Source: Felixounavirus LF110P4
Reading direction: 5' to 3' (one strand)
Sequence record: OZ035790.1
DNA: 64,000 bases
Below the pieces are notes generated by a model. It did no database searches and had not been told where the DNA came from. It saw only the letters and a list, made by a program, of their open reading frames with translations. Positions 9,890 through 58,994 of this stretch are shown one piece after another. A program made the translations under genes and the position numbers. The stretch's first letter is position 1; every line of letters begins with the position of its first letter.

Positions 9890-12615
9890 TGCACCTCATA
9901 CCAGCTCTTACCAACCTTACCTGTGCCAGTTACAAGTGTCTCACTCTTCAAACCTAAATTCTTAGATGCCTGACCATACATCCAGTCAGTTATGGCTTTA
10001 ACTTCTTGAGTCATACTTTCTGGGCATTCCCAACTGTTTTCATCGTGGTATGCCAGCAAAAGCCTAGCACCAATTGCTGGTTTTCGTCCATTTAATTTTG
10101 TCAGTCCTTCTTCACATGCTCTTCTACAAGCAAGGTTAATTGCCTCATTTTGAATCTGAGCCTCCGAACCCATAAGCAAATAATTCAATAACTTATGTGG
10201 AGATTTGCACCACAACCAAGCTCCAGCAACTTTTACAAAGCCCCCTTTAGAGATTGCAGCAGTCTTACCAAACACCTCTTCAAGTGCCTTTTTAGTTGCT
10301 TTGTAGTCAGCTTCCAAATCATCCAGCAACTTCTTAATTTTAGGCAAACGGATAAAGTAAGTCTGCTTAGTCAGTGCACCTTCCTGAGTAGTTGCAGCTT
10401 TAATCGTCTTAGCAAACTTCTCATCACCTGCACCGAACAGCAGTGCATAGATACCGTTCTTAGCTTTCTTACGACCTTTGCTAATCTCATGAAGAAGGTT
10501 CTCATCCTGAGTAGCTCGACAAGTCAAGATGTCCTGCTCATCGTTCAAGCTAAAGTAAATACTGTTCAGTGTATGTGCATCAGTCCCTGAATAGACAACG
10601 TACAGGTCATTCTCAGAGTCATAGCGAAGGTACTTATCAATCTCTGGGTTGAGGTACTCATCAAAGTGTTTGCAGTAATAGCGTCTATCTTCTTGACGAA
10701 TAAACTCAATCTCTTCTTTACCTTGCGTTACCGCTTTGGTGAAGTCTTTGTCACCCATAAAGTTACAAAGGAGGACTAGCTGGGCTGAGTTCATGTCTAC
10801 AGAGACAACGTTAGTACCTTCTTCACAAATCCACACTGCCCTCATTGGTTCCCCATAGACAGCAGCACCAGACGGTACGTTTACAATACCGTACTGTGTC
10901 ATACGTCCAGTTGAAGTACCAAACACCATTGCACCAGCACTAAGGCGACCATCTGGACGAATCTGGTTCAACCAACCTTTTTCATCATCCTTTGAGTTCT
11001 CAATAGTTCTGCGTCGGTGCATCAAAGTGTAGTATTTAGCAATCTTCTGTCCAAGCTCACCTTCAATCGTATCGTAAGATGATTCAGTAAGTTTTGGTGA
11101 AGTACGGATTAAGCAAGGCTCAAGCAAATCTGTGTACTTCTTCACAGACCAGTTATGCTCAATGTACTGGACGCCTTCGTGTTCAACATAACTCAAACCA
11201 CACCGCTCAACCATTTCCTGCCACTTAGGATGCTTTGTAATCATCTTTTTATTGTCTTTGAAACGACAAACTTTGACAGGGCGACCATCAGAGTCTTTCT
11301 TGTAGTTCCAGTCATCTGGAATCCAACCAACTGATTTCAAGTAGTCTTTAACAACTGCTACCTGAGTCATACGAGAAACTTCAAACTCAATTGGTGTATA
11401 TGGTGCATCAATCAAACCTGTGTAGCGACTTGACTCAAGTTCAAAGTGGTTAACAACGTGGCTGTTATAGTACTTCACAGTTTTGACTGTTTTTACTGGC
11501 TTCCAGTCTTTGCATTTCTTACCAATCTTTGCGTTCAACTCATTGCAAATTGCACGAGCATCCTTCATTGCTACAAAGCCTTCCTTGTACTCTTCACCAG
11601 TTACAGTGTTGGTTGGTGTATAGCAATTCCTTTTTTCAATGTTAAAAATCTTTGTAGTTGGCTTACCAAATGGTTTGATTTCGTATGTCTGCATCTCGCC
11701 ATTACGTACCTGCTGACGATACTTTGTCTTAGGGTACTTGGTAATTCTTTTCAGTCCATCTGCATGACCAAATGTTTCAACATACTCATTCCAAGCTTTT
11801 GCAAACTCTTCTCCAGTGACTTTACCTTTGGTCTTAATAGTTGGAGGTAGATGCGGTTCAACTTCTGAAGCAAGTTCATTAGTCAACTTGTCAAGTTCCT
11901 TTACATGGAACTCCATAAGCTCTTTATCAGCTTTCCAACCATTGATAGCCTGTTGACTCATCCAGAAAGATGTTTCTTTAGCTCGCATGTAAGTTTCATA
12001 AGTGTCTATACCACACTTCTTAAGCTTGAGATACTCGTTATCAAGTGCCCGTTTAGTTTTGGCGTTAATACGGATATCTTCTACAACACGAGTGAAGATT
12101 TCTGCATTCCACACACCCCAATGCTCAATCTCTGGCTTACGAACACCAACACGAGCACCCCATGCAGCCAAACCATGAGCACCTTTATAACCCTTTGGAG
12201 TTGGTCTATCCATCCACTGAACACGAGACTGGATAAGAGAATCCTGAAAGTAATTACTCCACGGTTTACACTTTGGGTTATCAAAGTTCCATAAATCAGG
12301 TGCAATGTGATTAAAAACCCACCAGTCATAACCGAGACCGTTATGGATGCAAAGACGTTTTGCCTTTAACGCAAATTCAACACCTTCACGTAAACCACCC
12401 TTAATGTACTTGGTATACTTGTGACCGAGGATAGGTTCATCTGTAAAGACCCATACAGGTGGCTCTTCATCGTCAGATTTATAGTCTGCGAAAGCCATTA
12501 CGTGCACTTTAGTGAACTCAAGGAGTAAACCATCAGTTTCTGTATCACCAACTAAATGTAAGTTTTTAAAATCTACGTTTTCCATTTTTACTCCCTCTAA
12601 AATCATTAACCTCAT
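9886..12615 (-). CDS. DNA polymerase, family A (T7-like) with 3'-5' exonuclease domain
   Basis: 909 aa; exo I motif VGDTETDG, exo II HNGLGYD, C-terminal polymerase domain. Confidence 0.85.
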   Translation of the reverse strand: MRLMILEGVKMENVDFKNLHLVGDTETDGLLLEFTKVHVMAFADYKSDDEEPPVWVFTDEPILGHKYTKYIKGGLREGVEFALKAKRLCIHNGLGYDWWVFNHIAPDLWNFDNPKCKPWSNYFQDSLIQSRVQWMDRPTPKGYKGAHGLAAWGARVGVRKPEIEHWGVWNAEIFTRVVEDIRINAKTKRALDNEYLKLKKCGIDTYETYMRAKETSFWMSQQAINGWKADKELMEFHVKELDKLTNELASEVEPHLPPTIKTKGKVTGEEFAKAWNEYVETFGHADGLKRITKYPKTKYRQQVRNGEMQTYEIKPFGKPTTKIFNIEKRNCYTPTNTVTGEEYKEGFVAMKDARAICNELNAKIGKKCKDWKPVKTVKTVKYYNSHVVNHFELESSRYTGLIDAPYTPIEFEVSRMTQVAVVKDYLKSVGWIPDDWNYKKDSDGRPVKVCRFKDNKKMITKHPKWQEMVERCGLSYVEHEGVQYIEHNWSVKKYTDLLEPCLIRTSPKLTESSYDTIEGELGQKIAKYYTLMHRRRTIENSKDDEKGWLNQIRPDGRLSAGAMVFGTSTGRMTQYGIVNVPSGAAVYGEPMRAVWICEEGTNVVSVDMNSAQLVLLCNFMGDKDFTKAVTQGKEEIEFIRQEDRRYYCKHFDEYLNPEIDKYLRYDSENDLYVVYSGTDAHTLNSIYFSLNDEQDILTCRATQDENLLHEISKGRKKAKNGIYALLFGAGDEKFAKTIKAATTQEGALTKQTYFIRLPKIKKLLDDLEADYKATKKALEEVFGKTAAISKGGFVKVAGAWLWCKSPHKLLNYLLMGSEAQIQNEAINLACRRACEEGLTKLNGRKPAIGARLLLAYHDENSWECPESMTQEVKAITDWMYGQASKNLGLKSETLVTGTGKVGKSWYEVH

Positions 12616-56290: not shown

Positions 56291-56662
56291 ATGAAAAACA
56301 GAACAAACAAAGGCCAGTTTAAAAAAGGCCAATCTGGAAACCCATCTGGAAGACCAAAAGGCTCTCGTAACAAAAGCTCACTTGTAAAAGCTCAACTGAC
56401 CATTGATAATTCTGCTGAGTTTGCTGCAAAATTATTTGAGGCGATTGTTACAAGAGATGCCGCTAAGCTTGCAGAGTTCGGGTTAAACACAGATGATGTA
56501 ACCATCAAGAGCATGATTGAGGTCGGTAAAACCATCTTTACTCACTCAGCAGGTGAGATGAAAGCACTTGCAGCAGACACTAAGAAAACCCCTGATAATG
56601 GTGGTCAGCCACAGACAGATAACAAACCAACGTTCTCTGCTGTAGCGACTCTCAAAAAATAA
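56291..56662 (+). CDS. hypothetical protein with conserved GNPSGRPKG motif
   Basis: 123 aa; N-terminal KKGQSGNPSGRPKGS Gly/Pro/Arg-rich motif. Confidence 0.45.
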   Translation: MKNRTNKGQFKKGQSGNPSGRPKGSRNKSSLVKAQLTIDNSAEFAAKLFEAIVTRDAAKLAEFGLNTDDVTIKSMIEVGKTIFTHSAGEMKALAADTKKTPDNGGQPQTDNKPTFSAVATLKK

Positions 56663-56743
56663 TTTTAAAAGGTGTTGACAGACTCTACAAAGTTGCTCTA
56701 AAGTCTGTCACATCAAACAACAAATGAGAGAAGAGAGTAAAGT

Positions 56744-58159
56744 ATGAGCGAATTATTTAAACATGCGCACCTTCATGCAGGTCGAACTGAAAATGGTGCT
56801 GTAAACCATACTTCATCAATGTCTGCTCTTGTGGACTTTTACAAAGCTGCTGGTTCCAGCCGTAGCAATGTAGAAATCTTACCAGACTTGTTCTACAAAG
56901 CTTTGCGTGAGGATGTTGATGTTGCAGTTCGTATTTTGCTTCACATGCGAGATGTACGAGAAGGTATGGGTGAGCGTAAAGCTTTCATAACTGTTTTACT
57001 TCAAGCAATCGAAGACAAAGTTTTAGAGCCTACGCAGGTTCTTCGCATTATGGATAAGATTGCAGAACTTGGTCGTTTTGATGACTTCAAAATCTTCGTA
57101 GGTACTCGTTTCGAGACAGATGCCTTCAAACATTTAGAAGCAGCATTACTAGACCCTGCAACAGCAGGTTTGGCGGCTAAGTGGTTACCACGAGTCAAAC
57201 CACGTCATAAGCAGTTTGTAAAACGTTTCTGCAAGTTTGCCAACTTGAGTGAGAAAGAGTACCGCACACTGTTGTCTGCACTATCTGATACAGTTGAGCA
57301 AAAAATCTCTGCTAATGAGTTTGGTAAGATTGACTACAGTAAGATTCCTTCACTTGCTGCTGCACGTTACCAAAAACTGTTTAACCGTAAAGATGGAGAG
57401 CGATACAAAGCTTACATTGAATCCTTATCAAAGGGTGAGGCTAAGATTAATGCTGGTGCTGTTTACCCATACGATGTGATTAAATCTGTCAAGCATGGTA
57501 ATGCAGATGTTGCTAATGAGCAGTGGAAAGCACTACCAAACTGGATGGCAGAAGGTGAAAACATCTTGTGTATGTCTGATGTATCAAGTTCAATGTCTTG
57601 GGTGAATTTTGGCTCCATTACTGCTCTGGATATTGGTGTATCACTTGCCTTGTATGTAGCAGAACGCAATACAGGTTGCTTTAAGAATGAGTTAATGGTT
57701 TATTCAACAAACCCTCACTTCATCGAACTGAGTGGTGATTTACGAAACCGTCATCGTCAGGTGATGCGACACGTTGAATATGGCTCAACTAACTTACAAG
57801 CAGCTTTTGACCGCATTCTTGAAACAGGTAAAAGAAACAACTTGACTCAGAAAGATATGCCAAGTAAGCTTATCATCTTCTCCGATATGGAGTTCAATCA
57901 GGTTGATGGAGCTAACGGTCGTACAAACTTTGAAGCAATCCATAGTAAGTACAAAAAAGCTGGATACGAAATGCCACAACTGGTATTCTGGTACTTAGCA
58001 AACCGTAATGGGACTTGCGAAGTATCTGTTAAGGATAACGGTGTAGCAATGGTATCTGGTTTCTCTCCAGCCACTTTAAAAGCTCTACTTGGTGGTGAGA
58101 AGTTTGACCCAATCAGCGTAATGCTCAAAGCAGTAATGATTGACCGTTATATCTGGTAA
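56744..58159 (+). CDS. vWA (MIDAS) domain protein, candidate Ro60/TROVE-like RNA-binding protein
   Basis: 471 aa; helical N-terminal region of about 280 aa, then vWA-like domain with MIDAS DxSxS motif (CMSDVSSSMS) and downstream LIIFSDMEF; located directly upstream of tRNA cluster. Confidence 0.4.
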   Translation: MSELFKHAHLHAGRTENGAVNHTSSMSALVDFYKAAGSSRSNVEILPDLFYKALREDVDVAVRILLHMRDVREGMGERKAFITVLLQAIEDKVLEPTQVLRIMDKIAELGRFDDFKIFVGTRFETDAFKHLEAALLDPATAGLAAKWLPRVKPRHKQFVKRFCKFANLSEKEYRTLLSALSDTVEQKISANEFGKIDYSKIPSLAAARYQKLFNRKDGERYKAYIESLSKGEAKINAGAVYPYDVIKSVKHGNADVANEQWKALPNWMAEGENILCMSDVSSSMSWVNFGSITALDIGVSLALYVAERNTGCFKNELMVYSTNPHFIELSGDLRNRHRQVMRHVEYGSTNLQAAFDRILETGKRNNLTQKDMPSKLIIFSDMEFNQVDGANGRTNFEAIHSKYKKAGYEMPQLVFWYLANRNGTCEVSVKDNGVAMVSGFSPATLKALLGGEKFDPISVMLKAVMIDRYIW

Positions 58160-58177: not shown

Positions 58178-58206
58178 TTGACAATGTGTTTAATACCCTT
58201 TAATAT
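58178..58206 (+). promoter_or_regulatory. sigma70-like promoter (TTGACA-17-TAATAT)
   Basis: Consensus hexamers upstream of tRNA cluster; overlaps inverted repeat AAGGGTATT...AATACCCTT. Confidence 0.55.
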
Positions 58207-58324
58207 GTTCTACATAGAAACGAAATGAGGGCTTTTCTAAGATACTGAAAAATATTTTAAAAAAGTTCTTGACAACCACTAAAAAATAATGTTAAAGTGG
58301 TTACATAGAGTTTGAAAAGTTTAT

Positions 58325-58401
58325 CTCTGTTTAGCTCAGCTTGGTAGAGCGTTCCGTTTGGGGCGGTAAGGCCGGAGGTTCAAGTCCTCCAACAGAGACC
58401 A
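58325..58401 (+). tRNA. tRNA-Pro (anticodon UGG)
   Basis: Manual cloverleaf: acceptor CTCTGTT/AACAGAG, T-arm GGAGGttcaagtCCTCC, anticodon loop TTTGGGG, CCA encoded. Confidence 0.6.
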
Positions 58402-58408
58402 AATTAAT

Positions 58409-58486
58409 GTTCCAGTAGACAAAATGGTAAAGTCACCACTCTTTCAAAGTGGATATTTGAGGGTTCAAATCCCTTCTGGAACGCCA
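58409..58486 (+). tRNA. tRNA-Glu (UUC)
   Basis: Acceptor GTTCCAG/CTGGAAC, anticodon stem CCACT/AGTGG, loop CTTTCAA, T-loop TTCAAAT. Confidence 0.6.
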
Positions 58487-58493
58487 GTTTTGA

Positions 58494-58565
58494 CAGAAGA
58501 CCAATTACAGCAAACTTAATCTACTCATCTGAAAGTTAATCGGACAAAGAAGATATTTGGTCTGG
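58494..58565 (+). ncRNA. candidate structured RNA element 1 (bulged closing stem CAGAAGACCAA/TTGGTCTGG)
   Basis: 5' CAGAAGACCAATTACAGCAA and 3' TTGGTCTGG inverted repeat; member of a 4-copy family with covarying stem. Confidence 0.35.
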
Positions 58566-58576
58566 TCATTAAGAAT

Positions 58577-58653
58577 TGCGGGTATAGAGAAAGGGCGTCT
58601 CACATGTCTCATTAGCATGGTATCGGCAGGTTCGACTCCTGCACCCGCCTCCA
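58577..58653 (+). tRNA. tRNA with CAU anticodon (Met/fMet/Ile2 type)
   Basis: T-arm GCAGGttcgactCCTGC, acceptor TGCGGGT/ACCCGCC with 1-72 mismatch, anticodon loop CTCATTA; structure partly irregular. Confidence 0.45.
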
Positions 58654-58659
58654 AATTTA

Positions 58660-58724
58660 CAGAAGACCGTTTACAGCAATATTTATTAAGTTTTTAGCGG
58701 AAAAAATTGAAAGATACGGTCTGG
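58660..58724 (+). ncRNA. candidate structured RNA element 2
   Basis: 5' CAGAAGACCGTTTACAGCAA and 3' ACGGTCTGG; stem covaries (CGT/ACG versus CAA/TTG) relative to element 1. Confidence 0.35.
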
Positions 58725-58737
58725 TAATACTAAACAT

Positions 58738-58814
58738 GGTTAGGAAGCACATAAGGTATGTGCGGTCGCCTGTTAAGCGAATGGCACAGGGTTCGAATCC
58801 CTGACTAACCGCCA
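58738..58814 (+). tRNA. tRNA-Asn (GUU)
   Basis: D-stem GCAC/GTGC, anticodon loop CTGTTAA, T-arm CAGGGttcgaatCCCTG, CCA encoded. Confidence 0.6.
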
Positions 58815-58823
58815 AATTTAAAT

Positions 58824-58911
58824 GTGTCGTTATCCCGTAGATGGTAGCGGTGGGGACTGTAAATCCCTTGTCATTGAGACTCGGTAGGTTCGACTCCTAC
58901 ACGGCACACCA
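58824..58911 (+). tRNA. tRNA-Tyr (GUA), class II
   Basis: 88 nt with long variable arm; anticodon stem-loop GGGGActgtaaaTCCCT; T-arm GTAGGttcgactCCTAC. Confidence 0.6.
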
Positions 58912-58916
58912 ATAAA

Positions 58917-58994
58917 GGTTATGTAGTTTAATTTGGTTAAAATACTCCCCTGTCACGGGAGATGATGAGGGTTCAAATCCCTTCGTAACCGCCA
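58917..58994 (+). tRNA. tRNA-Asp (GUC)
   Basis: Anticodon stem-loop CTCCCctgtcacGGGAG; T-loop TTCAAAT; CCA encoded. Confidence 0.65.

Follow-up and report, generated by a model that had tools for sequence, protein, structure and literature searches.

A Ro60-like protein of a Felixounavirus and candidate Y-like RNA partners in the adjacent tRNA cluster

Our subject is a 64,000-nt stretch of Felixounavirus LF110P4 (OZ035790.1), hereafter the window, and in it an ATG-start open reading frame (ORF) at 56744..58159 on the plus strand, whose 471-aa product we take for a divergent relative of Ro60. The best explanation, which sequence and a structural model make fairly probable, is that this protein belongs to a divergent Ro60/Y-RNA-type particle used in counter-defence, with four RNA elements of the adjacent tRNA cluster (E1–E4) as its likely partners. 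Ro60/Y RNA particles occur in animals, ∼5% of bacteria and a few phages.

The ORF is a real gene, since the homolog search returned 2807 sequences at E ≤ 1e-5, the family comprises 8874 clusters at 50% identity (E ≤ 1e-3), and the gene is conserved in 252 phage records. The region is 97–98% identical to many Felixounavirus genomes (Felix O1/wV8-like E. coli phages), whose copies of the gene are labeled 'hypothetical protein', 'vWFA protein' or 'RNA-binding protein'. A sequence-only reading of the window had described a 471-aa product with a helical N-terminal part, a vWA domain and an intact metal-ion-dependent adhesion site (MIDAS) motif, encoded directly 5′ of a tRNA cluster, and all of this holds. 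DVSSSMS occupies residues 279–285 (57578–57598) and FSDME residues 379–383 (57878–57892); both fall in invariant columns of 58 homologs that are 40–89% identical to the window protein, the invariant residues being D279, S281, S283, M284, S380, D381 and M382. On this strand ARAGORN also called 26 tRNA genes between 58325 and 63585, the first of which (tRNA-Pro, at 58325) begins 165 nt after the stop codon.

By profile match the protein is a full-length member of the DUF2828 + DUF7788 family (PF11443 + PF25043; PHROG 850). Pfam returned DUF2828 (6.9e-30) and DUF7788 (3.2e-43); the two scores, 148 bits against a cut-off of 27.1 and 104.6 bits against a cut-off of 29, are both above the curated cut-offs. 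In PHROGs, protein residues 1–471 aligned with positions 1–476 of phrog_850, 'RNA-binding protein' (2.5e-183), a name that is annotation and not experiment. An NCBIfam search gave no match. Canonical Ro60/Rsr proteins carry another Pfam pair, PF05731 + PF25045. Alignment of the family by hhalign to 41 canonical Ro60/Rsr sequences, gathered with the human (validated against PDB 9nen), Xenopus and Deinococcus sequences, gave a probability of 89% (E 2.2e-6). Residues 235–452 were matched to human Ro60 314–537, that is, to the last ring helix, which carries an (I/Y)(H/Y)P motif, and the vWA domain. MIDAS residues D279, S281, S283, T349 and D381 aligned on Ro60 D376, S378, S380, T445 and D469, and all five are invariant in the 58 homologs.

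An AlphaFold2 model built from the 58-sequence alignment (mean pLDDT 90.8, pTM 0.90, no segment below 50) has 16 helices in residues 1–263, then an alternating strand/helix domain at 274–455. When the model was compared with the PDB by Foldseek, the top 12 matches were all Ro60/TROVE structures (Thermus phage phiLo, Xenopus, human, Deinococcus), with E of 3e-9 to 8e-7, full-length alignments and query-normalized TM scores (TMq) of 0.40–0.64. Isolated vWA domains ranked after Ro60, at E ≥ 1e-3. In a viral structure library, phage and giant-virus proteins of the DUF2828/DUF7788 type were the nearest neighbors, and TROVE and 'Ro-like' proteins from phages came next. Since the Ro60 matches are full-length while the sequence family differs, the model argues for Ro60 architecture, a helical-repeat ring closed by a C-terminal vWA domain, in a separate large sequence family. 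The predicted N-terminal alpha-helical solenoid (residues 1 to ∼270, 56744..57553 (+)) would be the counterpart of the TROVE ring, and the vWA domain with its MIDAS (residues 274–455, 57563..58108 (+)) is the part matched by DUF7788. A match to Ro60 rings in both the helical repeats and the C-terminal vWA fold is what the sequence-only reading had proposed, and at the level of the fold that proposal is supported.

Neither the Ro60 likeness nor a role in counter-defence is new for this protein. It is identical at 460/471 residues (98%) to bas63_0130, a 471-aa protein of Escherichia phage JohannRWettstein (Bas63; MZ501086), and both genes follow a DUF5681 gene and precede tRNA-Pro by 165 nt; on identity and synteny it is the ortholog of Bas63 gp130. 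The PhageMaP preprint (2024, bioRxiv 10.1101/2024.10.10.617714) reported that gp130 is structurally similar to Ro60 and lies directly upstream of tRNAs, and that some Bas63 tRNA genes 'are possibly Y RNAs'. Deletion of gene 130 led to very small plaques on a ppl host, a defect that was complemented, and gp130 alone, plasmid-borne or inserted into T7, restored T7 growth on the ppl host; the Ppl defence gene combines ATPase and PHP domains (bioRxiv 10.1101/2024.10.10.617714). The core idea of the sequence-only reading was thus correct but had already been published for this 98% identical ortholog. From that identity the window protein presumably counters Ppl as well. An RNA quality-control or decoy function, also suggested earlier from the letters, may apply; the experimental result on the ortholog is counter-defence against Ppl, for which the protein sufficed. 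PHP-domain enzymes include the 5′–3′ exoribonuclease RNase AM, and one may speculate that Ppl acts on RNA rather than DNA.

A vWA domain could also belong to an unrelated protein of virion assembly or structure, such as a MoxR-type cochaperone or a tail component, and the gene does adjoin a block on the minus strand that encodes an Ig-like tail or decoration protein, while some records label it only 'vWFA protein'. We set this role aside as highly improbable. The gene is on the opposite strand from the structural block and has its own candidate promoter, a plausible sigma-70-like site (TTGACA-18-TAAAGT, 56675..56704 (+)) with 10/12 matches in a consensus scan whose count of promoter-like sites in the region does not exceed that in shuffled sequences. 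No AAA+ partner is encoded nearby, full-length Ro60 matches far exceed the vWA-only ones, and the ortholog is dispensable except on the ppl host.

The candidate RNA partners lie in the tRNA cluster, where AGAAGACCNNNTNCAGCAA occurs in four exact copies, all within 58495–59162. The corresponding elements E1–E4 are on the plus strand, 332–1117 nt past the stop codon. E1 (58491..58568) is a short Y-like element between tRNA-Glu and tRNA-Met, and E2 (58657..58727; 30.8 bits with the covariance model described below) is another between tRNA-Met and tRNA-Asn. A third short element, E3 (59053..59132), follows tRNA-Asp, as does the long element E4 (59140..59276). Their common predicted fold consists of an outer 4-bp stem, an AGA/G internal loop, a 7-bp stem (AGACCAA/UUGGUCU in E1), then single-stranded UUACAGCAA and a variable interior; the outer stem varies in sequence yet pairs (UGAC/GUCA, UUAC/GUAA, GAGC/GCUC). 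In E4 the basal stem and UUACAGCAA enclose a permuted tRNA-like domain, ordered as a V-like hairpin, the T arm GAAGGUUCGAUUCCUUC (GAAGG-UUCGAUU-CCUUC), a 7-bp acceptor-like hairpin (ACUCGGC/GUCGAGU) and a D arm (GUGU-AAUGGUA-GCAC). Judged by these arms, the interior is a tRNA whose ends have been joined at the acceptor and whose chain is broken at the anticodon; neither half is a recent copy of a tRNA from the cluster. E1 and E2 fill their spacers to within 4–10 nt of the flanking tRNAs, so ordinary tRNA end-processing would release them. All four elements lie within 4 kb of the gene and on its strand, as has been used to recognize Y RNA genes (PMC4201824), and they look like partners of the Ro60-like protein. 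We found this RNA family described nowhere, and it appears to be new. In the Bas63 record E1–E4 are partly covered by small minus-strand coding sequence (CDS) calls. A 76-aa ORF at 59140–59370 (−) and the Bas63 CDSs bas63_0137 and bas63_0138 (10749–11023 (−) of our locus L088) overlap E3 and E4 and are probably spurious calls.

We looked for the motif at 80 relative loci from IMG/VR, 5 of Felixounavirus and 75 with proteins at only 38–47% identity; the scan covered 81 loci (cited by L number). The first exact motif, AGAAGACC...GGTCTG, proved to be limited to Felixounavirus and was generalized to a stem plus CAGCAA; the conserved 5′ motif across the family reads WWWCAGCAA. A strict descriptor (7-bp stem, 3 nt, CAGCAA, 10–170 nt, complementary strand, G) found 99 copies on the gene strand against 2 on the opposite strand, and 2–7 in total in shuffled sequences. 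At least one copy lay within 1.5 kb of the gene, up- or downstream, in 50/81 loci, the largest array being one of five in tandem in the 600 nt that follow the gene in L075. Across the 75 distant loci, CAGCAA was accompanied by the stem at 75/388 occurrences on the gene strand and 2/310 on the opposite strand, compared with ∼1% for control hexamers of the same composition. Within a single locus, L006 (47% identity), the stems differ but remain complementary: AGAGCAC/GUGCUCU, AGAGCAG/CUGCUCU and AGGACAC/GUGUCCU. A covariance model, built from interior-deleted constructs and hence weak on long inserts, gave 34 matches at E ≤ 1 with default filters, every one of them on the gene strand and several of them to sequences not used in training; with filters off it found none of E1–E4 in Bas63, where the strict descriptor finds all four.

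The motif also keeps company with the gene where tRNAs do not. In L009, L010, L011, L016, L019, L022 and L023 it lies 27–35 nt after the stop codon with no tRNA within 6 kb, so it is more than a property of tRNA spacers. More generally, tRNA or transfer-messenger RNA (tmRNA) genes were present within 6 kb in 25/60 distant loci scanned, all 177 of them on the gene strand, and the tRNA cluster often begins 20–400 nt after the stop codon; in L081 a tRNA island surrounds the gene, which four CAGCAA elements immediately follow. In many loci short copies end ≤10 nt before the Shine-Dalgarno sequence, an arrangement typical of RNA-binding proteins that control their own synthesis. This suggests that in many relatives the protein also regulates its own translation; the 5′ untranslated region of the window gene has no CAGCAA element.

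Long and short forms differ in their interiors. A T arm was found in 13/34 long forms vs 0/58 short forms, and in 9 of those 13 a perfect 7-bp acceptor-like hairpin is followed by D-arm-like sequence, for example UAGCUCAGUCUGGUAGAGCA in L075. Long forms with a tRNA-like domain occur in L012, L017, L048, L070 and L075; other long forms hold different structured inserts. An ARAGORN test on un-permuted tRNA-like domains was positive for 10/11 but was dropped, as shuffled controls passed for 8/11. It does not discriminate, and the tRNA-like call therefore rests on the arms themselves.

Could the CAGCAA stem elements instead be cis-acting signals (tRNA-island processing sites, a leader or a terminator) read by host factors, their linkage to the gene reflecting conserved gene order? 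The window elements do sit in tRNA spacers, 4–10 nt from tRNA ends, and at other loci the motif is in the 5′ leader of the gene or just past its stop codon. We consider this quite improbable, because the motif changes position (upstream, downstream, or in tandem arrays such as that of L075), persists without tRNAs, and takes modular inserts, including complete tRNA-like domains, which is the behavior of trans-acting small RNAs. Gene order, moreover, is otherwise unconserved among the loci when compared with the window.

Several findings weigh against the Ro60/Y RNA interpretation. The sequence-only reading had offered TROVE and DUF2828 as profiles to search; DUF2828 matched, as given above, whereas TROVE (PF05731) was not matched at E ≤ 1 in Pfam-A, and by sequence the protein is not a TROVE member. 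Ro60 was not found among PDB sequences by phmmer or by the family profile. The hhalign alignment covers the C-terminal 218 residues only, leaving the N-terminal 230 unaligned, and with a three-sequence Ro60 profile its probability was only 65%; the N-terminal ring is therefore drawn from the predicted structure. On the RNA side, the Y RNA-like elements beside the gene agree with Y RNAs in layout (V-T-acceptor-D order in E4), whereas the YrlA motif GNCGAAN0-1G is not at the corresponding place in E1–E4, the sole GGCGAAG in E4 being the 5′ strand of the T stem. No Rfam family matched the elements, at permissive E-values on the window or at gathering scores on 12 loci, where the matches were to tRNAs and tmRNA only. 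No strict-descriptor copy was found within 1.5 kb at 31/81 loci, including a clade with Bacteroidota-type promoters. Every stem position has several Watson-Crick pair types, but these counts were taken from sequences chosen because they pair, which leaves the strand and shuffle controls as the real test. Finally, gp130 alone protects T7 on the ppl host; the phage RNAs are therefore dispensable for anti-Ppl activity, unless host RNAs substitute.

That last result speaks for a protein-only inhibitor, in which the vWA/MIDAS face, a classic module of protein–protein contacts, would bind Ppl or a host factor and block it, the Ro60-like fold would be ancestry only, and the RNAs would have no part in counter-defence. 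The rescue took place without the Bas63 RNAs, the MIDAS residues are invariant, and vWA domains, the next-best structural matches, are mostly protein binders. We nonetheless regard this explanation as unlikely. The full Ro60 ring fold has been kept, beyond the vWA domain alone, and canonical Ro60 also carries a MIDAS motif. A covarying RNA motif tracks the gene across 38–47% identical proteins, even without nearby tRNAs and often abutting the ribosome-binding site, a pattern not easily accounted for by a protein that has no affinity for RNA. Protection by gp130 alone means either that host RNAs substitute, or that the anti-Ppl activity is protein-only and the RNAs have another role.

The Ro60/Y-RNA-type particle that we favor would work as follows. 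The alpha-solenoid, closed into a ring by the vWA/MIDAS domain, would act as a ribonucleoprotein, like Ro60 with Y RNAs. E1–E4 would be cut out of the transcript of the tRNA cluster in the course of ordinary tRNA maturation. What the protein would recognize is a constant module, the terminal 7-bp stem with single-stranded UUACAGCAA on the 5′ side of the internal loop, and the variable module, which some elements lack and which in others is tRNA-like or of another kind, would interact with host RNA enzymes or serve as a decoy, giving the particle its target or partner. Through a motif copy before the ribosome-binding site, the protein might also regulate its own translation. RNA binding, RNA release, the role of the RNAs in counter-defence and the partner enzyme are all steps that we infer.

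A broader proposal, which we put forward tentatively and at somewhat less than even chances, is that DUF2828/DUF7788 is a large viral Ro60-type clade (∼8,900 clusters at 50% identity, spanning phages and giant viruses), each member paired with its own modular Y-like RNAs (a covarying stem with CAGCAA and tRNA-like or other effector domains), and that these form a general counter-defence device, directed against Ppl in Felixounavirus and self-regulating through the motif in the mRNA leader. In our searches the RNA partners of this putative clade were described nowhere. Surveys based on TROVE miss this large family at the sequence level; its sole studied member, Bas63 gp130, defeats the Ppl defence system, and given a conserved candidate for the RNA ligand, the mechanism can be tested directly. 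If true, the Ro60/Y RNA principle, including tRNA mimicry, would extend to thousands of phages, and annotations would be corrected where small minus-strand ORFs have been called over the RNAs.

Other features of the region were noted. Directly upstream of the Ro60-like gene, 56291–56662 (+) encodes the DUF5681 protein (PHROG 4114), in the same position in Bas63. Two sigma-70-like promoter candidates (58178–58206 and 58269–58298 (+), 10/12 consensus matches each) precede the cluster of 26 tRNA genes in which E1–E4 are embedded (58325..63585 (+)). Between E4 and tRNA-Lys, at 59277–59420 (+), a 17-bp inverted repeat (TTATCTTTGTAGATAAG / CTTATCTACAAAGATAA) surrounds ∼110 nt and may be a structured RNA. 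The spacer between tRNA-Thr and tRNA-Val (60975–61067 (+)) has a predicted folding energy of −29.9 kcal/mol (z −2.5 vs shuffles) and no CAGCAA motif. At the far end of the cluster, the ORF at 62614–63411 (+) has a GTG start inside tRNA-Phe (62585–62660); its true start is probably further downstream, because PHROG 2114 is matched from residue 28 onward and the Bas63 homolog starts after the tRNA.

Some of the side observations concern tmRNA and unusual tRNAs. At 59750–59782 (+), GCAAACGACAATGTTTTTCTGGCAGTAGCTTGA reads ANDNVFLAVA-stop, like a tmRNA tag; that of E. coli is ANDENYALAA. The surrounding 59599–59903 matched Rfam weakly (tmRNA_permuted at 31.4 bits, gathering score 47; tmRNA at 16 bits), and a strong sigma-70-like promoter candidate lies ahead of the tag at 59672–59700. 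ARAGORN called no tmRNA at this site, and no T arm was seen between the tag and tRNA-Arg. In six distant loci a phage tmRNA gene and the DUF2828 gene share a strand and lie a few kb apart at most: L021 (8605–9054), L026 (1317–1767), L031 (11822–12176), L033 (12119–12479), L037 (12694–13067) and L050 (12356–12709). At 60125–60199 (+) a tRNA-like gene missed by ARAGORN gave a weak Rfam match to tRNA-Sec; it has an acceptor stem UGGGACG/CGUCCCA, a normal T arm, an anticodon arm ACGGC-CUCCAAA-ACCGU and an unusually long D region. Its anticodon CCA (Trp) stands for the one amino acid missing among the 26 called tRNAs, and the same anticodon arm is found in L006 (∼10000–10066). ARAGORN also called long (90–95 nt) tRNA-Ile(tat) genes beside the DUF2828 gene in L007, L008, L012, L015, L025, L026, L027 and L029; these may hold introns or long variable arms.

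Compared with known systems, the window locus combines familiar architecture with a sequence family of its own. With the Ro60/Rsr proteins (Xenopus, human, Deinococcus Rsr-Yrn1, Salmonella/Mycobacterium Rsr-YrlA/YrlB) the window protein shares, in its model, the helical-repeat ring closed by a vWA/MIDAS domain; it is only 12–16% identical to them, ∼60 residues shorter and of another Pfam pair, and no rtcBA repair operon lies near the gene. Y RNAs of Ro60/Rsr have a terminal stem, a conserved single-stranded motif on the 5′ side of the internal loop and a tRNA-like domain, and long and short versions coexist (YrlA/YrlB). Y RNAs are encoded within 4 kb of Ro60 genes and on their strand, and in YrlA the tRNA-like domain runs V-T-acceptor-D (Chen et al., PMC4201824). 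E4 shares that order; E1–E3 lack the domain, as YrlB lacks the full domain. The Bas63 preprint guessed at annotated tRNA genes as Y RNAs, whereas our candidates are unannotated spacer elements, and it had no RNA motif or family-wide analysis. In Thermus phage phiLo, Ro60 was shown in vitro to bind two upstream Y-like RNAs (Yrl1, Yrl2) and host PNPase, and the Ro60–Yrl complex binds and slows PNPase (PMC12135203; PDB 9KOP, 9L5Y). The phiLo protein, phiRo60, is an annotated TROVE-domain protein with CGAA-motif RNAs upstream of its gene. Where YrlA has GNCGAAN0-1G, the elements described here have WWWCAGCAA: the stem with CAGCAA occupies the place of the CGAA motif of YrlA and the phiLo Yrl RNAs, on the 5′ side of the internal loop above the terminal stem.

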